Source: Thermoproteota archaeon (GTDB lineage: Archaea; Korarchaeota; Korarchaeia; Korarchaeales; Korarchaeaceae). Taken from it: a DNA stretch of 40,943 nt. Position 1 is the first letter of the stretch. Each line of letters starts with the position of its first letter. The position numbers were made by a program, and so were the translations under genes. The stretch spans positions 1 through 40,943 of the forward strand of contig QMVZ01000001.1 in NCBI GenBank assembly GCA_003661365.1, in the 5' to 3' direction. This document shows positions 19,116-40,174 of this stretch, piece after piece. Below the pieces are notes generated by a model, which saw only the letters and a list, made by a program, of their open reading frames with translations, did not search any database and was not told where the DNA came from.

Positions 19116-19953
19116 CTAGGAATGAACGTATTTTCTAGCGGCGTCTTCTGCCTTCTTAATGATTTCAAGATTCCTTGTAAGACCCTCTATGGGATCTTGG
19201 GCTCCGCTTTCAAATATCAAGATCCCATCATATTTGTGTTCTACTAGAAGTCGAAGAATGCCAACCAAGTCCAAGTTCCCTTCTCCCAAAGGAAGGTGGA
19301 ATAGTTCCGAATTAGGGCCCGTATTGTCGCTTAGATGCACATGTATCACCCTATCAATTACTTGATAGAGGAAATTGACAGGATCTGAACAAGTGTTAGC
19401 GTGTGCAGCATCAAATGTTATCCCCACGTTCTGCAAGTTTATTGCATCTACCAGTTCTAACATTACCTCTGGAGTGGTAGCAAACTGATCTGGTCTAGAG
19501 TCCGTGTTCTCCAGTCCAACTCTTATCCCAAGTTCCTTGGCTTCCTGACAAACTTCCTCGAGTGATTCTATTGCTTTCTCAATGTAAATACGATCTGGAA
19601 TTCTAAGGCTTGCCCTTCTCCCTGGGTGTATGACAACAAGCTCGGCTTCCAACTCAGCAGCCAAATAAACGCTTTTCATTAGCAGAAGTTTAGACTCACG
19701 TCTTATCCACGGATTGAGGCCAGCTATGTTCATATCATGGCAGGGAGCGTGAATTGTGCAATTTATCCCGTTTTTCTTCAGCAAACTCAAGATTTCTGAG
19801 GTCTCTCTTTCCATCCAGGTACGGGAACATAGAGGGATGATCCATCCACAGTTCAAATACCTCATAACCCATCTTTGAGAGCCCATAGATTGCGTCTTCT
19901 ACGCTAAGATTCCACAGAGCACCTTGCCCGAATCCCAGCCTCCAGCCTCTCAA
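19116..19953 (-). pseudogene. sugar phosphate isomerase/epimerase (xylose-isomerase-like TIM barrel), interrupted by an apparent +1 frameshift
   Basis: The N-terminal homology (LGFGQGALWNLSVEDAIYGLSKMGYEVFELWMDHP) lies in ORF 19735-19953. The rest (ETSEILSLLKKNGINCTIHAP...VVIHPG...GLEN...HVHLSDN) lies in ORF 19116-19886, in another frame. Confidence 0.7.
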
Positions 19954-22496: not shown

Positions 22497-22826
22497 CTAT
22501 TTTGTCTCCAGTTCTGCCAATCTTTTCTCCAAGTCCTCAAGTTGTCTCTTGAGCATGTCTCTTTGTTGTTTGAGCAACTTTATCTGATCTTCCTTGCTCG
22601 TTGGAGCCATGGGAGGCATCATAGTCGTTGGAGGCATCGTTGGAGCCTGTGGGTAAGGCAAGGGAGTAGTTGGAGCTGTTGGTGGAACCATACCGTACTG
22701 GAAAATTGGAGGTAGTCCTCCTGGTGATCTACCAAGCCAACCTGGTGAATAACCGAATCTTACCCATCCTGGAAGGCCTGTAGCATAATACATCCTTCTC
22801 CATCTGTATCCCATATCCATCACCAT
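22497..22826 (-). CDS. DUF5320-like small protein (aromatic/Gly-Pro-rich N-terminal part, coiled-coil C-terminus)
   Basis: 109 aa. YYATGLPGWVRFGYSPGW matches the DUF5320 core as I remember it. The C-terminus KEDQIKLLKQQRDMLKRQLEDLEKRLAELETK has heptad character. Confidence 0.65.
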   Translation of the reverse strand: MVMDMGYRWRRMYYATGLPGWVRFGYSPGWLGRSPGGLPPIFQYGMVPPTAPTTPLPYPQAPTMPPTTMMPPMAPTSKEDQIKLLKQQRDMLKRQLEDLEKRLAELETK

Positions 22827-22858
22827 TTATGTGATTATGCTAACAAATATTTAAGGAT
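22810..22858. repeat. left arm of a perfect 49-nt inverted repeat (partner 24360-24408)
   Basis: cccatatccatcaccatttatgtgattatgctaacaaatatttaaggat is the exact reverse complement of 24360-24408. It covers the TATA-like box, the spacer and the first 17 nt of the CDS. Confidence 0.95.
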
Positions 22859-23261
22859 TCCTGTTCTCGCTTAGAATCTCCACAGGCTGTTTAGAAGACA
22901 GCATCTGTTCCATTGCAACTATAACCTTATCCGATAACACATGTTCCAATTTGCATGCTTCCATCTTAGATTCTTTTCTTGATAGACCTAGGATTTCCTC
23001 TAAAAATCTCTGTATCAACAAATTCTTTCGCTGTATCTGTAAAGCTTGTCTGAACCCTTTCGCTTTCAATCTAGCTCCTATTCCAGGTTTATAATCCACT
23101 AGATCAAGTTCATGAAGTCTTCTAAACATTTCTGTGACTGATGGCGGCTTTATGTTTAATCTAGTAGCCACTTCAGTGGTTCTGATGTATCTGCGGTCCC
23201 CGCCTTTTTCAAAGAGCGTCTTTAGATAATCCTCTATTGCTCTCTTTGAGCACTTACTCAT
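22851..23261 (-). CDS. DtxR/MDR1-family metal-dependent transcriptional repressor (HTH + dimerisation domain, no SH3 domain)
   Basis: AIEDYLKTLFE...TTEVATRLNIKPPSVTEMFRRLHELDLV (wHTH) and ...RFLEEILGL...MEACKLEHVLSD (DtxR primary metal-site C/E/H motif). The ORF is open to 23390. I chose the ATG at 23261 (MSKCSKRAIEDYL), which removes the overlap with the divergent gene. Confidence 0.85.
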   Translation of the reverse strand: MSKCSKRAIEDYLKTLFEKGGDRRYIRTTEVATRLNIKPPSVTEMFRRLHELDLVDYKPGIGARLKAKGFRQALQIQRKNLLIQRFLEEILGLSRKESKMEACKLEHVLSDKVIVAMEQMLSSKQPVEILSENRNP

Positions 23262-23323
23262 TGCTATCAATAAATTGGGATAATGCACATTATTATATTT
23301 TTTGGATTTTAGTTTAAAGAATA

Positions 23324-24322
23324 ATGGTAAACATAGTATACGGTCCAGTTCCCTCTTGGAGACTGGGAAGAAGCCTAGGAATAGACGCAACGCTTCTACC
23401 CAAGGCTTGTACTTTTGATTGTGTGTATTGTCAGCTTGGTAAAACCATCAGAAAGCTATCCTCTCCAAAAGAGCTAAATCCAGTTATCGGAGTTGAAGAG
23501 CTGATTAAGCAGTTAGAACGTAAGATAGAGAAGGTTGGTCCTGATTCGATAGATTTCATCACCTTCTCAGGAACTGGGGAACCTACTCTCAATCCTAACA
23601 TTGGAAACATGATCTCTGCTGTGAAAAGATTGATCCCTTTCAAACCGGTTGCTGTTCTAACGAATTCGTCCTTAGTGTACTTGGATGAAGTTAGAAATGC
23701 GCTCTCAAATGCAGACCTGGTATCCTTTAAGCTAGATGCAGCAGATCAGCAGACATTTGAAGAAATAAACAGACCTGTTGCCAACATTCCAAACATAAAG
23801 GAAATCATTGAAAGTATTAAGAAATTCAAAGCTGGTCATCATGGAATACTTGCCCTCCAGATCATGTTAGTCGATAGCATCAAGCCTGATTTCAGGGTTA
23901 ATTTCAAGGGAGAGGCACTGAACTGCTTAATTGAGGGTATTGCTGAAATACAACCGGATCAAATTCAGCTAAACACTCCAACTAGACCTGTGATGGAGAA
24001 ACACATCAAACCCGTCAATTCTACTATACTAAGTGCTGTAGAGGAGAGAATCAAGGAAGTAACTCCGGAATCAGAGGTAATAAGGGTCGATGAAGAGAGA
24101 GTTCCACTAAAATCGATAAAAAGAGAAAAGAAGCCTATAGAAGAGCTAAGGGGAGATATACTTGCTCTGTTAAAGAGAAGACCCTGTCGAGCAGTTGACA
24201 TATCCATTGCATTAGGAACTGAGAAAAGAGAAATTGAAGCAATCGTAAGATCAATGGTTAAAGAAGGAGTAATTATAGAGATAAGAAGTGAAAGAGGGAC
24301 TTACTATACTTACTCAAGTTGA
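23324..24322 (+). CDS. radical SAM protein with C-terminal winged-helix-like extension
   Basis: 332 aa. CTFDCVYCQLG (CxxxCxxC) and SGTGEPTL. The C-terminal LLKRRPCRAVDISIALGTEKREIEAIVRSMVKEGVIIE looks like a wHTH. Confidence 0.85.
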   Translation: MVNIVYGPVPSWRLGRSLGIDATLLPKACTFDCVYCQLGKTIRKLSSPKELNPVIGVEELIKQLERKIEKVGPDSIDFITFSGTGEPTLNPNIGNMISAVKRLIPFKPVAVLTNSSLVYLDEVRNALSNADLVSFKLDAADQQTFEEINRPVANIPNIKEIIESIKKFKAGHHGILALQIMLVDSIKPDFRVNFKGEALNCLIEGIAEIQPDQIQLNTPTRPVMEKHIKPVNSTILSAVEERIKEVTPESEVIRVDEERVPLKSIKREKKPIEELRGDILALLKRRPCRAVDISIALGTEKREIEAIVRSMVKEGVIIEIRSERGTYYTYSS

Positions 24323-24359
24323 AACCTTGCACTACATGGTACACAGAGGATCGAGAACC

Positions 24360-24408
24360 ATCCTTAAATATTTGTTAGCATAATCACATAAATGGTGATG
24401 GATATGGG
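24360..24408. repeat. right arm of a perfect 49-nt inverted repeat (partner 22810-22858)
   Basis: atccttaaatatttgttagcataatcacataaatggtgatggatatggg. The TATA-like ttaaatattt starts 28 nt upstream of the ATG at 24392. Confidence 0.95.
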
Positions 24409-24715
24409 GTGGGTGCAAGGAAGGTGGATCGGAAGGAGATGGTGGTACTACCCGCCTGTTGCGCTTCCATTAGCAAGTAGAGGGTATATTTACATAGGAC
24501 CCTGTAGATGTGGCTTTGGACCGAACGCATTTTACCTCACTCCAACTGGACAGATCGTCCATGCTTGGCAACTGACCGGTCTAGCTTTCCCTGGATTTTT
24601 GCCATGGACAATGACACCCATATCTGAGAGAAACATGCTTGAAACTGAGAAGAAGATGTTAGAGGAAGAACTTAGGTACATAGAAGAGAGATTGAAACAG
24701 ATTGGGGGCGAGTAA
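24392..24715 (+). CDS. DUF5320-like small protein, paralog 2
   Basis: 107 aa. Shares MVMDMG and an aromatic/Arg-rich N-terminus (GWVQGRWIGRRWWYYPP) with paralog 1. Contains GPCRCGFGP and the coiled-coil C-terminus ERNMLETEKKMLEEELRYIEERLKQIGGE. Confidence 0.6.
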   Translation: MVMDMGWVQGRWIGRRWWYYPPVALPLASRGYIYIGPCRCGFGPNAFYLTPTGQIVHAWQLTGLAFPGFLPWTMTPISERNMLETEKKMLEEELRYIEERLKQIGGE

Positions 24716-24716
24716 C

Positions 24717-24875
24717 ATGAGATGGGGAAGATGGTTCAGACCATTTAGGGGTTGGCGTGGAGGACCCTTTTATTGGACCGTTCCTCCTTGCTATTATCTC
24801 TTCTACCCAGCATATTCAGTATATAGAGTTCCTTGGCCTCTAGCTTATCGCCAATACGGTTATTTCTTTTGGTGA
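24717..24875 (+). CDS. unannotated 52-aa aromatic/Arg/Pro-rich small ORF
   Basis: MRWGRWFRPFRGWRGGPFYWTVPPCYYLFYPAYSVYRVPWPLAYRQYGYFFW. The ATG is 1 nt after the upstream stop, GGGGG lies about 10 nt upstream, and the stop is 6 nt before the next ATG. It is below the 60-aa cutoff of the ORF track. Confidence 0.5.
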   Translation: MRWGRWFRPFRGWRGGPFYWTVPPCYYLFYPAYSVYRVPWPLAYRQYGYFFW

Positions 24876-24881
24876 TGTAAA

Positions 24882-25406
24882 ATGGTTGAGAAAATAGTGG
24901 TAGCCAGCCAGGGGCTTGGAGGTCTGGATGATTATGTGTCTCCAGTTTTTGCAAGATGCAACAGCTTCACCGTAGTGGAAGTTGAGGATGGACATGTTCT
25001 AGAAGTCACTACGCTAAATAATCCCTCAAAATTGGCACCATCTGGAGCAGGAATACAGGCAGCCCAGTTCATTGCTTCTACGGGGTCTAAGGTTGTAATT
25101 GCAGGTAACTTCGGGCCTAATGCACTCACCGCACTCTCTTATATGGGAATAAGAGCGGTAACTGCTGCTTATGGTTTCAAAGTAAGAGAAGCCGTTGAGA
25201 AATATTTAGAGGGAAGCTTGCAAACTCGCGGTATTAGACCACCTATGGTACCAGCCCCCGGATTGCTACAAGTACCATCCTATACTCCAACGTTACCAAA
25301 GGAGAAGGAAATTGAAATGTTGAGGGCAAGGATGGGTTTCATCAAAAGGAGGCTTAGGGAAATAGAGGATAGACTTAAAGAGTTAGGTGAGAAGGAAGAA
25401 GGGTGA
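24882..25406 (+). CDS. NifX/NifB-like domain protein with DUF5320-type coiled-coil C-terminal extension
   Basis: 174 aa. The NifX-like core is KIVVASQGLGGLDDYVSPVFARCNSFTVVEVEDG...GAGIQAAQFIASTGSKVVIAGNFGPNA...YLEGSL. It is followed by a Pro-rich linker and KEKEIEMLRARMGFIKRRLREIEDRLKELGEKEEG. Confidence 0.8.
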   Translation: MVEKIVVASQGLGGLDDYVSPVFARCNSFTVVEVEDGHVLEVTTLNNPSKLAPSGAGIQAAQFIASTGSKVVIAGNFGPNALTALSYMGIRAVTAAYGFKVREAVEKYLEGSLQTRGIRPPMVPAPGLLQVPSYTPTLPKEKEIEMLRARMGFIKRRLREIEDRLKELGEKEEG

Positions 25407-25410
25407 TTTT

Positions 25411-25836
25411 TTGGAAAGAATAGTTGTTTCTTCAAGCCCTCCAGGAGGGCTAGATAGCTTAGTAGATTATAGATTTGCTAGGTGCAGCCACTTCACAGTG
25501 GTAGATGTAGAAAACGGTAAGATCATTAACGTAAGTGTAGTACCAAACCAATCTGCCATGACTCCTCATGGAGCAGGAATACAGGCAGCCCAGGTTGTGG
25601 CATCACTAGGGGCTCAAGTAGTTATAACTGGAAACGTCGGGCCCAATGCCTTTTCCTCGTTGCAAAGTTTAGGTATTAAAATCTACTTAGGAGCAGGAGG
25701 AATAAGCGTTAAAGATGCCATTATGAGGTACTTATCCGGCTCTCTCAGCCCCGCTTCTGGACCAGGATCGCCTGGCAGAGGAATGGGGAGAGGCATGGGC
25801 AGGGGTATGGGCACAGGTAGAGGAAGACGGTGGTAG
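25411..25836 (+). CDS. NifX/NifB-like domain protein with C-terminal (GRGM)n Gly/Arg tail
   Basis: The core is RIVVSSSPPGGLDSLVDYRFARCSHFTVVDVENG...GAGIQAAQVVASLGAQVVITGNVGPNA...YLSGSL. The tail is GPGSPGRGMGRGMGRGMGTGRGRRW. I chose the TTG at 25411 by alignment to the upstream paralog; the ORF track starts at the GTG at 25387. Confidence 0.8.
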   Translation: MERIVVSSSPPGGLDSLVDYRFARCSHFTVVDVENGKIINVSVVPNQSAMTPHGAGIQAAQVVASLGAQVVITGNVGPNAFSSLQSLGIKIYLGAGGISVKDAIMRYLSGSLSPASGPGSPGRGMGRGMGRGMGTGRGRRW

Positions 25837-25957
25837 CTGCCGCGAGGATTCCTACAAATTGATTGTAGGATAATTGGGTTGCGGACCTTGAGTTGGAGGC
25901 GAGAGGAAGTTGTACTCAAGCTACTTGTCTGAAATTCAATTGCCAAAAGAAACTCAA

Positions 25958-26863
25958 ATGGACTCGAACAGAGAAGGACCGAAAGTCATAGCAGTTACTG
26001 GAGGTAAGGGAGGCACCGGAAAAACAACAATTGCTGTAAACCTTGCCTTCTACTTCTCACAGGCTGGCAGAAAGGTCCTACTAGCTGATTGTGATGTCGA
26101 CGCTCCAAGTGTCGCAACGGTTCTTGGAGTCGAGATGGAGAACGGAGAAGAGGTAAGACAATTCCTCCCTATTTTTGATGAGAACAAGTGCATACGCTGT
26201 GGAGAATGCTCAAGAGCATGCAGAATGCACGCAATACTTCACGTTCCTGATAAAACGCCAGTTTTGTTCCCTGAATTGTGTTTAGGCTGCAGGGCATGTG
26301 CTATCGTATGTCCTACAGATGCAGTTCTAGATGGAAGAAAAGTCGTCGGATGGGTCTATGAAGCAAAAGCATATGGAATAGATTTGCTCATAGGCGAATT
26401 AAAGCTGAACGAGAGAGAGTCCGAGGCAATAATAAAGAAGGTAAAGGAGAAGGCAATGCGTTTATCAGAAGAGAGAGGATATGACCTCATTATCATAGAT
26501 ACAGCCCCTGGAGCTCATTGCGACGTAGCTTTATCGTTAAAGGATTCGGATTTTGTGCTCGCTGTGACTGAACCTACTCCCTTTGGGATGCATGATTTAG
26601 ACCTGATACTTGAGTTAGCTAACTTGTTAAAACTGAGGCATGCAATTGTGGTGAACAGGGCTGATCTCCCAGGAGATCATCAACTTTTGAAGGAGATCTG
26701 TGAGAAAAATTCTTCTAGATTGATTGGAGAGGTTCCTGTAGATGATAAAGTAGTGCGGAGCCATATAATGTCAAGACCTTTACTGTTGGACTTTCCAGAT
26801 AGTCCAGCAACAAAGGCGATCCTAGATCTTGCAAAAGAAATAGAGGAGGAGCTTGGCCTATGA
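25958..26863 (+). CDS. MinD/ParA-superfamily P-loop ATPase with inserted 2x[4Fe-4S] ferredoxin domain (COG1149-type)
   Basis: Deviant Walker [11 protein letters not shown]. Cluster motifs [11 protein letters not shown] and [13 protein letters not shown] chose the ATG at 25958 ([16 protein letters not shown]); the ORF is open from 25910. Confidence 0.88.
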
Positions 26864-27747
26864 AGGAAGTCGTAATAGTGAGCGGGAAAGGAGGAGTAGG
26901 GAAAACTACAGTATCAGCCTCTCTAGGATGGTTAATGGCAGAGAGAATGAAGCTGGTGATGGTAGATGTGGATGTGGACGCTCCTAACCTTTCTTTGGTA
27001 ATTGGTGGCTCTCTAAAGAATTCGCTAATGATAGAAGCTGCTGAAAAGGCATTTGTTTTTGAGGAAAAATGCAAAGGTTGCGGAATCTGCTCAGAAAAAT
27101 GTCCAGAGGAAGCTATTCAGATAATTGGGCACAAAGCCGTTGTTTCAAGCTTATTCTGCAGTGGATGTGGGGTTTGCTCTTTGGTTTGCCCTGAAAAGGC
27201 GATTGAATTGAGATTAGTTGCTAACGGAAGGCTCAATCTATACGAGAGTCATTCTGGATCTGTATTACTCGTAGGAAAACTGATGATCGGGGAATCTGGC
27301 TCAGGAAAACTTGTGTCCGAAGTCAAAGAGAGAGCAAGGCAAGTGGCTAAGGAGAAAGGCGCGGATTTGGTGCTAATAGATGGTCCTCCTGGTGCAGGGT
27401 GCCCAGCGATTTCGGCAGTTTCAGGGGCTACTCATGCAATAATGGTTACAGAGCCAATACCTGCGGCCTTTAAAAATCTCAAGAGGATTTTTTCAATAAT
27501 AAGACATTTTGGGGCAAATCCAGGTCTAATAATCAATAAAGCCGACTTGTATGAACCAATAAAGCAAGAAGAGATTTACTTTGCTAAGAAGGAGGGCATA
27601 GAAGTGCTAGGCGAGATACCCATGGATAACTCGGTTCCACAATCTCTAGCCTTAGGTATGCCAGTTGTCAGTGCATTTCCTGATGCTCCAGCTTCTATAG
27701 CTATTAAAAAGATCTTTGAAAATCTGATAAATTTCTTAGAGGGTTAA
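26860..27747 (+). CDS. MinD/ParA-superfamily P-loop ATPase with inserted 2x[4Fe-4S] ferredoxin domain, paralog 2
   Basis: 295 aa. [38 protein letters not shown] overlap with paralog 1. Confidence 0.88.
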
Positions 27748-28124
27748 TCCTCTGTTTCCTCCTCCCTTAACATAACAGGGGCTTGTGGCACTATGAACAG
27801 CTCTCTTCCTTCGGAAATTGCTTTTATTATCTTTTTCCTTCCACTTGCGACTAACCTCCAAACAGTCCCACGAGAGACTCCCATTCTCTTAGCTGCTTCC
27901 TCCTGACTGAGATCTTCTCCGTCTACAAGTCTAAGGGCTTCAAACTCGTCGTATGATAGCAAGATTGGTTCCTTTGGCTCCATAATCGCCCCTTGAGGAA
28001 GAAAGGGCGCGAAATGTCTTATTGAGGGTATTTCACTGATCCATCTTGGCTTCCATGGTCTTCCTCTTCTCCTATGCAATCCCCTCTTAGGTCCTCTTTC
28101 CGGAGCAATCAGTTCTATCGCCAA
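27744..28124 (-). CDS. DUF134 (UPF0251) family predicted DNA-binding protein
   Basis: 126 aa. [13 protein letters not shown]...[51 protein letters not shown] matches the DUF134 consensus (sigma-70 region-4-like HTH). TTG start. Confidence 0.85.
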
Positions 28125-28317
28125 GAATTAAAAAGCTGTTTCTCTTTTTAAAAGGATCCTTTTCACACCCTTAACAAAATGTGTTTACAGAGTTCTAGAT
28201 TCTTATAACTCACTTAGATGCTAAGTACGCACTCCTGATAAAGTCTCTTAAATGAAGCATGATGTACCAAATATTGTAAGGAACCCTCAATTCTGATTTC
28301 GCATCATGTTGAGAAAG

Positions 28318-28357
28318 TTAGGTTAACCTAAACCTTTATATGTTAGGCAAGCCTAAC
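28318..28357 (+). promoter_or_regulatory. feo promoter: two DtxR-box-like palindromes flanking a TATA-like box
   Basis: TTAGGTTAACCTAA (28318-28331) is a perfect 14-bp palindrome. cctttatatg is the A/T box. GTTAGGC-aa-GCCTAAC (28342-28357) has 7-bp arms. The half-sites resemble the TTAGG/CCTAA halves of the DtxR/IdeR iron box. Confidence 0.6.
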
Positions 28358-28422
28358 TTCATCATGTGTGTTACCGGTGTCCAATCTTTCGCTACTGCAT
28401 GAAGCGCTCTAGGGGGGATGCT

Positions 28423-28674
28423 ATGGATAAAGATCAGGGAGTTAGGAAGCTTAGCACGTTAAATGTGGGAGATAGAGGTATAGTAGTTAATCTAGCTGGA
28501 AAAGGAGCTATTATCAAAAGACTAATTGAAATGGGCCTAGTTAGGGGTGAAGAGGTCAAGGTAACAGACAAATCTCCACTTGGGGATCCCATAGAAGTTG
28601 AAGTGAAGGGATACAGGCTCTCTTTGAGGAGGAAAGATGAGGCTGATCACGTCTTCGTGGAGGTGGTAGACTAG
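28423..28674 (+). CDS. feoA: FeoA-family ferrous iron transport protein A
   Basis: LSTLNVGDRGIVVNLAGKGAIIKRLIEMGLVRGEEVKV...PIEVEVKGYRLSLRRKDA is a typical FeoA SH3-like domain. I chose the ATG at 28423; the ORF is open from the GTG at 28366. Confidence 0.85.
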   Translation: MDKDQGVRKLSTLNVGDRGIVVNLAGKGAIIKRLIEMGLVRGEEVKVTDKSPLGDPIEVEVKGYRLSLRRKDEADHVFVEVVD

Positions 28675-28675
28675 C

Positions 28676-28912
28676 TTGTACAAGCAAGCACCCATCTCAA
28701 TGTCAATGCTTCCATCAGGATCCAGATGCGTTGTTAGGGGCATAGTTGCTGGTAGGGGGCTTATTAAGAGATTAGTTGAATTGGGATTAGAGCCAGGATC
28801 CACTGTAAAAGTTGTCAGAAATGAGAGAGGGCCTCTTCTAATAGAGATAAAGGGCTCTAGGCTTGCTTTGAGCAGAGGTATAGCTTCAAAGGTGCTTGTG
28901 GAGGTGTCTTGA
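28676..28912 (+). CDS. feoA: FeoA-family protein, second copy
   Basis: 78 aa. LPSGSRCVVRGIVAGRGLIKRLVELGLEPGSTVKVV..PLLIEIKGSRLALSRGIA. The start is uncertain (TTG at 28676 or ATG at 28700). Confidence 0.82.
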   Translation: MYKQAPISMSMLPSGSRCVVRGIVAGRGLIKRLVELGLEPGSTVKVVRNERGPLLIEIKGSRLALSRGIASKVLVEVS

Positions 28913-29592
28913 TGAAGAGGATACGCGTTGCCCTTGCTGGAAATCCAAATGTTGGAAAGTCTGTTATCTTCAACGCCTTAACGGGGGGAAGGCAGCACGT
29001 AGGTAATTGGCCAGGGAAGACCATTGAAAAGAAGGAAGGAATTTGCTACCATAGGGGATATGAGCTATACATAGTGGATCTCCCAGGAATATACAGTCTA
29101 ACAACTTTTTCACCAGAAGAACTCATAGCTCGCGACTACATCTTAAACGAGAAGCCTGATGTAGTGGTTAACATAGTTGATGCCTCTAACCTTAGAAGGA
29201 ACCTCTATCTCAGCATTCAGCTCATGGAATTAGGAGCAAGGCTCATAATTGCCCTTAACAAGAGTGATCTAGCTGAATCGCTTGGATATGAGATAGACGA
29301 GAAGAGGTTAGAGAAAAACTTGGGAGTTCCCGTTGTTCCTACAGTAGCCACTAGGAAAATAGGCTTACAGGAACTTTGCGACAAGATAGTTGAAGTTGTT
29401 GAGAGAGGGGCTCCTCCTTCATCCATAACTTACCCTGAAATAGTAGAAGCAGAGATTGAGAGGATAAGAAAGGTGTTAGAAAAGGATCCAATGATAAGAG
29501 AGAGCTATAACACAAGATGGCTTGCTATAAAGCTGTTAGAAGGAGATGAAGAAGCTGAGCGAAGGATATTAGCTAAATTAAAAGGTGGTTAA
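28909..29592 (+). CDS. feoB: FeoB N-terminal part: G-domain plus beginning of helical domain
   Basis: 227 aa. G1 GNPNVGKS, G3 DLPG, G4 NKSD. Ends inside the helical domain (..WLAIKLLEGDEEAERRILAKLKGG*). Confidence 0.9.
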   Translation: MMKRIRVALAGNPNVGKSVIFNALTGGRQHVGNWPGKTIEKKEGICYHRGYELYIVDLPGIYSLTTFSPEELIARDYILNEKPDVVVNIVDASNLRRNLYLSIQLMELGARLIIALNKSDLAESLGYEIDEKRLEKNLGVPVVPTVATRKIGLQELCDKIVEVVERGAPPSSITYPEIVEAEIERIRKVLEKDPMIRESYNTRWLAIKLLEGDEEAERRILAKLKGG

Positions 29593-35362: not shown

Positions 35363-35432
35363 ACAAAATACCTCCACACTCGCATTATCTCTAGAAAATC
35401 GGGCTTACTCTTAATATTATGCTAACATCTTC

Positions 35433-38360: not shown

Positions 38361-39524
38361 ATGCCAATGAAATTCCCGGTATACTTAGACAACATGAGAG
38401 CGACCAAAGTCGATCCTCTGGTTATTGAAGAGATGGTAAAGTACATGCAGGAGATCTATGCAGCTCCTGGAGGAGAGTTTGGTCATAGCATGGAAGAAGA
38501 GGCTGCAGAAGCATTAGAAAAGGCAAGACAGAAGATAGCAAGGAAAATAGGGGCGAAGCCAGAGGAAATAGTCTTCACATCTGGTAGAGTGGAGAGCAAC
38601 AACCTTGCAATCAAAGGCACCGTTCTGGCATCTGGAAAAAAGGGAAAAGTCATTTCATCAAGAATAGAGGAAAGTTCCGTGTTGAGGAGCTTGGAAAGCC
38701 TTGGAAAGATGGGTTTTAACCCGATGTTGGCTCCTGTAGATTCCGAGGGATTTGTAAAGCAGGAGAACCTTTCAGAAATGTTATCTGGAGCTATTCTAGG
38801 CTCAATTCAATTTGTAAATCCTGAAATCGGAACAATTCAAGATTTGAAGGCCATAGGAGATCTTTTCGAAGAAAAGAATGTAATATTTCACAGCGACGCC
38901 TCTTGGGGATTCTGTAAGGTAGATATCGACGTTAGGAAGATAAATGTTGACCTTCTAACCCTTTCATCAGGGCTAATTCACGGCCCCAAAGGGGTGGGTG
39001 CCCTGTATGTAAGAGAAGGTATCAAGCTCCAGCCCCTATTTGATGGAGCTCCAAGGGAGTTCGGTTTAAGACCTGGGATGGAAGACGTGCCAAGCATAGT
39101 GGGTTTTGCCAAGGCAGTTGAACTGATAACAGAAGAGGACATTGCCCGTATGAAGAGATTAAGGGACAAACTGATGGATATTCTCTTAGAGATCCCAGAT
39201 ACAAAGCTAAATGGTCCTAAAGGGGACAGAAGAGTTTGCAATAACGTAAATGTCTCCTTCTTTGGAGTTGAAGGTGAGACAATACTTTTGAAGGCCAGCA
39301 TGAAGAACTTGTTCTTAAATACTGGTTCAGCTTGTTACAGCAGAGAACTTCTGCCTAGCCACGTGATATTAGCTACTGGAGGCTCGTTTGAGCAGTCCCA
39401 TGGCTCGGTAACCCTAGGCCTCAGTAAATGGACAACTGAGCAGGAGATATTTTATGCCAAGGAAGTTTTGGAGGAAATAGTAAGGGAAATGAGAAGCATC
39501 AGTCCACTCTATCGGAGGTCTTAA
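38361..39524 (+). CDS. iscS: IscS/NifS-like class V aminotransferase-fold protein lacking the PLP-binding lysine
   Basis: 387 aa, collinear with IscS. VYLDN...EIVFTSGRVESNNLAIKG and the active-site loop NTGSACYS are retained. The canonical SGHK-IYGPKG reads SSGL-IHGPKG, so there is no Lys. Confidence 0.8.
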   Translation: MPMKFPVYLDNMRATKVDPLVIEEMVKYMQEIYAAPGGEFGHSMEEEAAEALEKARQKIARKIGAKPEEIVFTSGRVESNNLAIKGTVLASGKKGKVISSRIEESSVLRSLESLGKMGFNPMLAPVDSEGFVKQENLSEMLSGAILGSIQFVNPEIGTIQDLKAIGDLFEEKNVIFHSDASWGFCKVDIDVRKINVDLLTLSSGLIHGPKGVGALYVREGIKLQPLFDGAPREFGLRPGMEDVPSIVGFAKAVELITEEDIARMKRLRDKLMDILLEIPDTKLNGPKGDRRVCNNVNVSFFGVEGETILLKASMKNLFLNTGSACYSRELLPSHVILATGGSFEQSHGSVTLGLSKWTTEQEIFYAKEVLEEIVREMRSISPLYRRS

Positions 39525-39526
39525 AC

Positions 39527-40174
39527 ATGGAAATAGCTGGGGGGGCAAAGGAGTTGTGGAAAAGGGTTGGTTACACCGAGAAAGTGATAGACCACTTCAT
39601 GAACCCGAGAAATGTAGGAGAAATGAAGGACGCTGACGTCTCCTCAACTGTTGGAAGCGTCGCTTGCGGAGACATGATAAAGATCTTCCTTAAGATCGAT
39701 GAATCCGACAGGATAGAGAAGATCTCATTTCTTTCTTATGGTTGTGCTTCCAACATAGCTACTACTTCTGTTATGACTGAGTTGGTGAAGGGCAAGTCGC
39801 TTGAAGAGGCAAAGAAGCTTTCCTTCAAAGAAATAGTTGAGGAACTAGGGGGTCTTCCTGCCATAAAGTATCACTGTGCGGTGCTGTCAATAGCTGGATT
39901 GAGGACGGCTATAGCAAAGTATGAGGTGAAGAAGGGTAGAAGACCTCTTGACGAGGACTTCGTCATGACGTTGCTTAAGGGAGTTTTGGATCCAATGACT
40001 GGCAGAGACATAGTTAGCATGGGAAAGGTTAAATCTGTTAGCGTTCATGATGGAGCCATAGATATAGAGCTAGATATGTCGGGAGAAGACGAGATATCCA
40101 AAGTAATAAGAGCTGAGATCTTGGACGCTTTCGAAGGGTTGGATGTTAGCCTTAATGTGAAGTTAAAGAGTTAG
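39527..40174 (+). CDS. iscU: IscU/NifU-N scaffold domain fused to a C-terminal DUF59(MIP18/SufT)-like domain
   Basis: The IscU motifs VACGDMIK, SYGCASNIAT and KYHCAVLS span residues about 1-135. They are followed by LLKGVLDPMTGRDIVSMGKVKSVSVHDGAIDIELDM..., which resembles DUF59. Confidence 0.8.
   Translation: MEIAGGAKELWKRVGYTEKVIDHFMNPRNVGEMKDADVSSTVGSVACGDMIKIFLKIDESDRIEKISFLSYGCASNIATTSVMTELVKGKSLEEAKKLSFKEIVEELGGLPAIKYHCAVLSIAGLRTAIAKYEVKKGRRPLDEDFVMTLLKGVLDPMTGRDIVSMGKVKSVSVHDGAIDIELDMSGEDEISKVIRAEILDAFEGLDVSLNVKLKS

Follow-up and report, generated by a model that had tools for sequence, protein, structure and literature searches.

Why should two genes whose proteins are only distantly similar begin with exactly the same 49 nucleotides (nt), laid out as mirror images around another gene pair? 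The question is raised by contig QMVZ01000001.1 (assembly GCA_003661365.1) of an uncultured hot-sediment Thermoproteota archaeon that GTDB places in the Korarchaeaceae. The stretch of this contig that we analyzed, hereafter the window, is 40,943 nt long. In it, the two arms of a perfect inverted repeat enclose the divergent genes of a DtxR-like metal-dependent regulator and a radical SAM protein, and each arm leads outward into a gene that resembles the DUF5320 family. We consider it probable that the arms are two inverted copies of one promoter and translation-start module, held alike by selection and gene conversion.

The repeat is as exact as an earlier note on this DNA had described it. 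Direct comparison and an inverted-repeat scan of the whole window agree on two arms that are 100% complementary over 49 nt and enclose an inner segment of 1501 nt (designations beginning with L are our handles for loci and contigs compared with the window):

22810 to 22858, minus strand: left arm, predicted promoter and 5' module of DUF5320-like paralog 1; conserved in L001, L164/165, L166 and L168-171
24360 to 24408, plus strand: right arm, predicted promoter and 5' module of DUF5320-like paralog 2 and the six-gene operon

This pair is the longest inverted repeat of the window, the runners-up being 23-24 nt long (83-87%). Sub-patterns of the arms are expected 0.01-0.05 times in shuffled sequence, and 163 other loci, 1-13 kb in size, have best perfect inverted repeats with a median of 13 nt. 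The left arm does overlap the last codons and stop of the DtxR-like gene, as had been reported, with the stop codon (22851-22853) lying inside the arm. Identity was also said to end abruptly on both sides. This has to be modified for the upstream edge, where a 3-nt indel is followed by CGAGAAC, again common to both arms; the flanks are otherwise diverged.

The arms recur in three other assemblies and, with slight divergence, in four further lineages, which rules out an assembly artefact. Identical 49-nt arms in the same orientation are present in JGI contig L081 and ENA contig L082, which show 17-19 differences from the window per 13 kb and therefore represent separate strains or assemblies. 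The Logan k=31 contig L083 (1561 nt) consists exactly of the inner 1501 nt, extended by 30 nt into each arm, and ends there because an assembler working at k=31 must break at a repeat longer than k. The exact radical SAM protein of the window is encoded on all three contigs, and no variant occurs in either arm among these strain-level assemblies. Elsewhere, a 2.2-kb Methanosarcinales contig (L025) bears a 54-nt perfect inverted repeat exactly at its ends (1-54 and 2193-2246), which is most likely an assembly artefact unrelated to the arms.

The locus is mirror-symmetric around the DtxR-like/radical SAM divergon, with gene order and strands as originally proposed:

22497 to 22826, minus strand: DUF5320-like paralog 1, last gene on the left side; 109 amino acids (aa) from the first ATG of the arm (ATG1), 105 aa from the ATG at the fifth codon (ATG5)
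22851 to 23261, minus strand: DtxR/MntR-family metal-dependent regulator, 136 aa, Pfam Fe_dep_repress and Fe_dep_repr_C
23324 to 24322, plus strand: radical SAM protein with a C-terminal winged-helix (TrmB-like) domain, 332 aa, by domain search
24392 to 24715, plus strand: DUF5320-like paralog 2; 107 aa from ATG1, 103 aa from ATG5

The two outer genes had been described as diverged DUF5320 paralogs. Diverged paralogs they are, being 28% identical and homologous both to each other (E = 1e-4) and to the genes in the same position in relatives. The family label is less secure, since Pfam DUF5320 (PF17253) scores 26.0 and 22.7 bits, under its 27-bit gathering threshold, with a match confined to the C-terminal coiled coil. 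An NCBIfam search of the two proteins gave no match, and both genes are best called DUF5320-like.

Inside each arm, the layout put forward in the earlier note is correct throughout: a TATA-like box starts 28 nt before the first ATG and is followed by an 18-nt spacer and then by 17 nt that read ATGGTGATGGATATGGG in both arms. The proposal that the arms are promoter-plus-start modules of two old paralogs is likewise supported.

24364 to 24373, plus strand: TATA-like box TTAAATATTT, at -28 to -19 from ATG1, invariant in 10/10 arms
22845 to 22854, minus strand: mirror copy of the TATA-like box, containing the TAA stop of the DtxR-like gene
24374 to 24391, plus strand: 18-nt spacer GTTAGCATAATCACATAA, operator-like, with predicted protein binding; at most 3 changes across five lineages
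22827 to 22844, minus strand: mirror copy of the 18-nt spacer (gttagcataatcacataa), between TATA box and start
24392 to 24394, plus strand: ATG1 of paralog 2, possible second, leaderless start
22824 to 22826, minus strand: ATG1 of paralog 1, possible second, leaderless start
24394 to 24399, plus strand: GGTGAT, Shine-Dalgarno-like, 4 nt before the fifth codon
22819 to 22824, minus strand: mirror copy of GGTGAT
24404 to 24406, plus strand: ATG5, probable start of paralog 2 (MGW)
22812 to 22814, minus strand: ATG5, probable start of paralog 1 (MGYRW)

The sequence TTAAATAT is centred about 24-25 nt before ATG1; relative to the transcription start, an archaeal TATA box is expected to be centred about 26 nt upstream. 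In the window, at least seven other first genes also carry A/T boxes 22-33 nt before their start codons (778, 3698, 13646, 14773, 23324, 32928 and 40458). Because the arm box, at -28 to -19, is placed as the boxes of these genes are, transcription is expected to begin at or next to ATG1, and each arm would be an archaeal TATA-type promoter.

Translation calls for a different reading from the one first given, in which both genes shared their first five codons (MVMDMG). Most likely, translation truly starts at the fifth codon, and the four codons before it are a 12-nt leader that carries a Shine-Dalgarno sequence. The 3' end of archaeal 16S rRNA can pair with GGTGAT, and GGTGA(T) also stands 3-10 nt before internal genes of the window (7066, 8861, 18200, 24882 and 30910). 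In the right arm of L001, a 1-nt deletion (GATCG-TATG) puts ATG1 in a frame that reads MVIVWAG-stop, so paralog 2 of that lineage must start at the fifth codon (MGW). Similarly, in distant relatives ATG1 is replaced by ACG (L087), followed by a stop (L085/L086, with TAA between the ATG1 and ATG5 positions) or absent (L006). These relatives keep GGTGAT, 3-5 nt and ATG-GG, giving proteins that begin MGYRW, MGW or MAWW. The only replacements of codon 5 are TTG and GTG. Both starts might be in use, with a leaderless start at ATG1 on the module's own transcript and a Shine-Dalgarno-led start at ATG5 on read-through from the DtxR-like or radical SAM gene. The likely start codons of both DUF5320-like genes are hereby corrected.

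We then turned to related loci, which were fetched with the radical SAM protein by genome and metagenome scans, followed by a protein search and contig look-ups. The scans gave one close lineage, a Guaymas Basin Thermoproteota metagenome-assembled genome (L001, on the same contig as L084) with a 69% identical radical SAM protein. Protein search and contig look-ups added L164/L165 (79%), L166/L167 (77%) and L168-L171 (77%), the last of which one source names Candidatus Korarchaeota. The mirrored gene order is thus found, in the same orientation, in five lineages: window/L081/L082/L083, L001, L164/165, L166/167 and L168-171. Loci with radical SAM identity of 52% or less have a single DUF5320-like gene and no inverted repeat; the mirrored arrangement therefore appears confined to, and to have arisen once in, one clade, which is probably Korarchaeia.

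Within this clade, the arms are conserved far beyond their surroundings. A 38-nt core, CCTTAAATATTTGTTAGCATAATCACATAAATGGTGAT (from CCTTAAAT to GGTGAT), shows 0-3 differences from the window in every arm of every lineage. Four-fold degenerate sites of five locus genes are 39-66% identical between lineages (40% for window versus L001), and the roughly 30 nt that separate the radical SAM stop from the right arm resist alignment across lineages. The longest perfect match between window and L001 in the normally diverged 7 kb is 47 nt long and runs across the left arm. Such constancy of a non-coding core, next to four-fold sites changed to this extent, indicates purifying selection that would hold the 38 nt nearly constant between lineages. 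Selection on a shared cis-element, one of two explanations offered earlier, thereby gains comparative support from all five lineages. As to the related question of whether orthologous loci keep arm identity, the arms are conserved in the four other lineages, but full left-right identity over 49 nt is found only in the lineage of the window.

The other explanation, localised gene conversion, also gains support from comparison, here of ten arms from five lineages over 49 positions. Thirteen of the 49 positions vary. At positions 22-23, L001 has AT in its two arms where the other four lineages have TA in theirs; at position 27, the two arms of L164, L165 and L166 carry T and those of the other three lineages A. 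Three core sites group the two arms of a genome together and none, among the ten arms, groups left arms against right arms. Just outside the arms, the flanks follow orthology in all lineages (ATACAGATGG versus xTGGxT; AGGAATCC versus CYAWCC). Left-right differences within a genome number 0 in the window, 2 in L164, 3 in L166 and 5 each in L001 and L168. These add up to 15, the minimum over all 120 left-right pairings (permutation mean 21.8), although the test overstates independence, L164 and L166 being sister lineages. In the window, all 13 variable positions are identical left to right, including edge positions that differ in other genomes. The likeness of arms within genomes most likely reflects concerted evolution, most simply by short-tract gene conversion, and on the simplest reading conversion was most recent and most complete in the window's lineage.

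Further along the same contigs, DNA identity between window and L001 rises from about 0.75 to 0.93-0.98 at about 27800, intergenic DNA included, and stays high to the end of the L001 contig. L164 shows a like jump (0.90-0.99) over DUF134-feoAB, and L168 does not (0.5-0.8).

27800 to 29450 in the window, 7250 to 8942 in L001 and 7400 to 8215 in L164: high-identity segment with DUF134, feoA, feoA and the 5' part of feoB

Between window, L001 and L164 this segment is 90-99% identical, against about 75% elsewhere, which looks like recent lateral exchange among co-occurring lineages and suggests that homologous recombination is active in these populations.

What the module might bind is best approached from more distant relatives. 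In Nitrososphaeria and Bathyarchaeia, homologous promoters consist of a TATA box, the palindrome TGTGC-N4-GCACA, 3-10 nt and (A)TGGTGA....ATGG. The palindrome occupies this same position in L002, L087, L172, L006 and L014, where it separates the TATA box from the first gene of DUF5320/NifX-like operons, and it also occurs upstream of DUF134 and radical SAM genes. This operator class was defined in the present analysis and is not a described family; to our knowledge, no description of it exists. In the fetched loci, the palindrome (at most 1 mismatch) is 13-fold denser within 400 nt of DUF134 genes (0.617 vs 0.047 per kb) and is found on both sides of DUF134.

TGTGC-N4-GCACA sites in Nitrososphaeria/Bathyarchaeia metagenome-assembled genomes: L002, 2596 to 2609; L087, 3487 to 3500; L004, 9383 to 9396; L006, 5071 to 5084; L014, 179 to 192; L172, 2668 to 2681
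23276 to 23302, unstranded: central conserved block TGGGATAATGCACATTATTATATTTTT between the DtxR-like and radical SAM genes, with TGGGATAATGCACA and then the radical SAM TATA box
27744 to 28124, minus strand: DUF134 helix-turn-helix protein (Pfam DUF134, 2.2e-25), candidate regulator of the module

By position, the arm spacer would be a degenerate homolog of TGTGC-N4-GCACA. The central block is nearly invariant in the five lineages while the rest of the intergenic spacer diverges. Its TGGGATAATGCACA has two mismatches to TGTGC-N4-GCACA and contains the palindrome ATAATGCACATTAT, and the block is the positional homolog of the operator upstream of the radical SAM gene in L002 and L087. We infer that left arm, centre and right arm are three related sites for one regulator, for which DUF134 is, by association, the best candidate. 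A direct likeness between ATAATCACAT of the arm and ATAATGCACAT of the centre was not relied on, since the two align only with a 1-nt gap and the centre of L001 shows no counterpart of the change in its arms. Searches of the window for further arm copies that could form a regulon, using the spacer, the TATA half and ATCAC-N7-GTGAT, returned only the two arms. The 12 nt that follow the arm TATA box, TGTTAGCATAAT, have a third exact occurrence at 35416-35427 (minus strand), in the 55-nt gap upstream of an aspartate/ornithine carbamoyltransferase gene. We rejected it as a further copy of the element, because it precedes an A/T box instead of following one; the match is probably due to chance.

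Several observations weigh against our interpretation of the arms. The concerted signal amounts to three or four variable sites and about two events, with L164 and L166 being sisters, and parallel selection, with both operators following their regulator as it changes, would produce this pattern equally well. ATG1 is in frame in 9/10 arms, with TTG as its only substitution, so a leaderless start may still be in use. The arm sequence TTAGCATAATCACA matches TGTGCATATGCACA at 10/14 positions (3 mismatches in 10 specified bases), a score common by chance in 41 kb, so that homology of spacer and operator is argued from position and not from score. The palindrome ATCAC-N7-GTGAT around ATG1 is invariant in the window, L001 and L168 and broken (ATCTC, GTCAT) in the L164-166 clade, for which reason it was not relied on as an operator. 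One could accordingly do without conversion: the arms would have stayed alike since the duplication, nearly every base being constrained, and the shared changes would be parallel or compensatory after a change in regulator specificity. The very strong conservation of the core between lineages, the small number of concerted events and the placement of the left-right differences of L001, L166 and L168 (3-5 of 49) at less constrained edges are all compatible with selection acting alone. It would nonetheless need the same TA>AT swap and the same A>T change to have arisen independently in both arms, and it sits poorly with the left-right identity of all 13 variable positions in the window, edges included. 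The central operator-like block, moreover, did not co-vary with the arm change of L001, which disfavors a shift in regulator specificity. We regard selection alone as unlikely.

Other explanations start from the geometry or from the neighboring genes. Homologous recombination can act on a perfect 49-nt inverted repeat, and with recombination active in these lineages, the arms might be the recombination sites of an invertible 1.5-kb cassette whose DtxR-like/radical SAM flip acts as a regulatory or phase-variation switch, an inversion that the earlier note had envisaged. The DtxR-like reading frame would even stay intact, since its last codons lie in the arm. Yet all 11 arm-spanning contigs (11/11), from five lineages with near-saturated synonymous divergence, show a single orientation, a count that refers to assemblies, in which minor subpopulations are invisible. 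A Pfam survey of all genes called in the flanking 6 kb on each side, plus ten further window genes, turned up no invertase or integrase. Nor would inversion alter any promoter-gene junction: the promoters sit in the arms facing outward and either arm supplies the same last DtxR-like codons, so a flip would be silent, swapping only which upstream gene reads through into which paralog. We therefore consider a switch very improbable. Still more remote is the idea that the DtxR-like and radical SAM genes are the cargo of a mobile element whose terminal inverted repeats are the arms. The geometry, 49-nt inverted termini around 1.5 kb, is all that speaks for it, while the Pfam content of the neighborhood includes no transposase, the outer flanks (CCATCTGTAT vs GTGGGTGCAA) form no target-site duplication, arm sub-patterns have just two copies in the window, both arms continue into coding sequence that is homologous between the two paralogs, and the arrangement is syntenic in five diverged lineages; the probability we give it is close to nil. 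As for binding, the location of the DtxR-like gene between the arms invites the view that its product represses from the 49-mer and makes both paralogs iron- or manganese-responsive. In its favor, TGTTAG directly follows the arm TATA box, as it does in the downstream feoA box (TTTATAT-GTTAGGCAAGCCTAAC). The 19-bp DtxR/IdeR consensus is TTAGGTTAGCCTAACCTAA, and recognizable sites of this type lie at the feoA promoter:

28318 to 28331, plus strand: DtxR/IdeR-type palindrome TTAGGTTAACCTAA, flanking the feoA TATA box
28343 to 28356, plus strand: DtxR/IdeR-type palindrome TTAGGCAAGCCTAA, flanking the feoA TATA box

Equivalent feoA boxes are carried by L001 and L168, and the boxes of the feoA-feoA-feoB promoter are likely the real target of the DtxR/MntR-like regulator. 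The arms contain no palindromic TTAGG-N4-CCTAA box, their second half-site being missing, and a search of the window with TTAGGCNNGCCTAA (at most 2 mismatches) finds the feoA sites plus one unrelated site. The same module, with another palindrome and beside DUF134, is present in relatives that have no DtxR gene next to it. With TGTTAG as the sole half-site, the DtxR-like protein has little in its favor as the arm binder it had been suggested to be; such regulation of the paralogs is quite doubtful, and weak or half-site binding is conceivable but unsupported.

A broader proposal would accommodate both regulators. The arm could be a local, degenerate form of an undescribed, widespread archaeal operator bound by DUF134 proteins, duplicated in this Korarchaeia-like clade around an inserted DtxR-like gene and partly remodelled. 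We put this forward tentatively, as an unlikely possibility. If true, DUF134 would control orange-protein-complex-like Fe-S/metal-cluster operons through TGTGC-N4-GCACA, the remodelling would have set a TGTTAG half-site like that of the DtxR box at feoA beside a TCACA half-site that was retained, and one promoter sequence, kept identical by conversion at two places, would integrate two regulators.

A structured leader RNA was considered and is not convincing. No known RNA family was matched in Rfam at E<=1, shuffled sequence folds as well as the 49-mer does (z = -0.9), and the longer read-through contexts, which fold at z = -2.3 and -2.7, form structures that differ between the two sides.

Returning to the module held by selection and conversion, its history may be sketched as follows. 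The ancestral module would be old, given that TATA, TGTGC-N4-GCACA and ATGGTGA..ATGGG precede the homologous operon in distant archaeal relatives. In one clade, probably Korarchaeia, it would have come to serve both paralogs that flank the divergent DtxR-like/radical SAM pair. Purifying selection may since have preserved the core, while short-tract conversion would spread rare changes to both arms and would have homogenised the whole 49 nt in the window's lineage. As a predicted consequence, paralog 1 on one side and the orange-protein-complex-like operon of paralog 2, NifX-like and MinD-like genes on the other would be under identical control of transcription and translation. A repressor would most likely bind between TATA box and start, with the DUF134 protein of the cluster as leading candidate.

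Paralog 1 has a W/Y/R/G-rich N-terminal part and a C-terminal coiled coil, and the DtxR-like protein scores below the equivalog cut-offs of the NCBIfam MntR/DtxR models that it matches. The operon behind paralog 2 continues as follows:

24717 to 27747, plus strand: rest of the right-arm operon, comprising a 52-aa W/R/Y-rich open reading frame (ORF), two NifX/orange-protein-like genes and two MinD/Mrp-type ATPases with 4Fe-4S inserts

NCBIfam MrpORP matches are found among these genes. The 52-aa ORF (24717-24875), which follows paralog 2, is very rich in W, R, Y, F and P and is conserved in relatives, and small W/R/G-rich ORFs also head the operon in the distant relatives L002, L006 and L014. 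The second NifX-like protein ends in GRGMGRGMGRGMGTGRGRRW (25750-25836). Beyond the convergent DUF134 gene lie feoA-feoA-feoB, and 10 kb downstream, at 38361-40174, are genes for a cysteine desulfurase (Aminotran_5) and a NifU/IscU-like scaffold. With feoAB, the DtxR-like, NifX-like and MinD/Mrp-like genes, two radical SAM genes and the cysteine desulfurase and NifU/IscU-like genes, the window is generally rich in iron/Fe-S functions. DUF5320 and DUF134 are essentially uncharacterised in the literature searched. Away from the locus, L081 and L082 have 2 nt that are missing from the window at about 19801. Their absence splits a 279-aa AP_endonuc_2 (xylose-isomerase-like TIM barrel) gene into minus-strand ORFs of 256 aa and 72 aa (19116-19886 and 19735-19953), and is either a strain-specific frameshift or an assembly error.

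The locus offers what appears to be a clean natural example of concerted evolution restricted to a regulatory module of about 50 nt. It suggests that paralogs diverged almost beyond recognition can stay under identical transcriptional and translational control. It also supplies a concrete cis-element for a conserved, uncharacterised archaeal cluster (DUF5320-like, NifX-like, MinD-like and DUF134) and, in TGTGC-N4-GCACA and the DUF134 protein, a candidate operator-regulator pair.

Several known systems resemble the locus in part. fimS, hin and the shufflons are invertible promoter switches. They share with it the inverted repeats around a segment of 1-2 kb, but here there is no recombinase gene, a single orientation is seen and the promoters face outward within the repeats, so that a flip switches nothing. 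Another comparison is with MDR1 of Archaeoglobus fulgidus, a DtxR-family repressor whose operator lies between the TATA box and the transcription start. The conserved, operator-like 18 nt of the arms are likewise placed between TATA and start, where archaeal repressors block recruitment of RNA polymerase, although they contain no DtxR-type palindrome and would instead be a degenerate relative of TGTGC-N4-GCACA. As to how the arms stay alike, tufA/tufB of Salmonella and E. coli and the duplicated chaperonin genes of crenarchaea undergo concerted evolution by gene conversion. In those genes as in the arms, copies within a genome are closer than orthologs, tract edges are sharp and inverted orientation is tolerated. 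The tract here is about 49 nt long and covers a promoter/operator/ribosome-binding module instead of coding sequence, the proteins beyond it being 28% identical, and conversion is deduced from about two events.

In function, a counterpart is the orp cluster of Desulfovibrio vulgaris Hildenborough, in which two divergent units flank a regulator gene, share its binding palindromes and are co-regulated, by means of sigma-54 promoters, the activator OrpR and IHF (PMC6345978, PMC3897727). Both clusters encode NifX/orange-protein-like domains and MinD/Mrp-type Fe-S ATPases, which here match NCBIfam MrpORP. They differ in that the archaeal locus has TATA-type promoters with likely repression between TATA and start, candidate regulators of the DtxR-like and DUF134 types, and two promoters that are identical in sequence over 49 nt. 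We regard the orp cluster as a functional parallel built from different parts. The arms themselves are no new kind of genetic element; they are a product of ordinary genome evolution.

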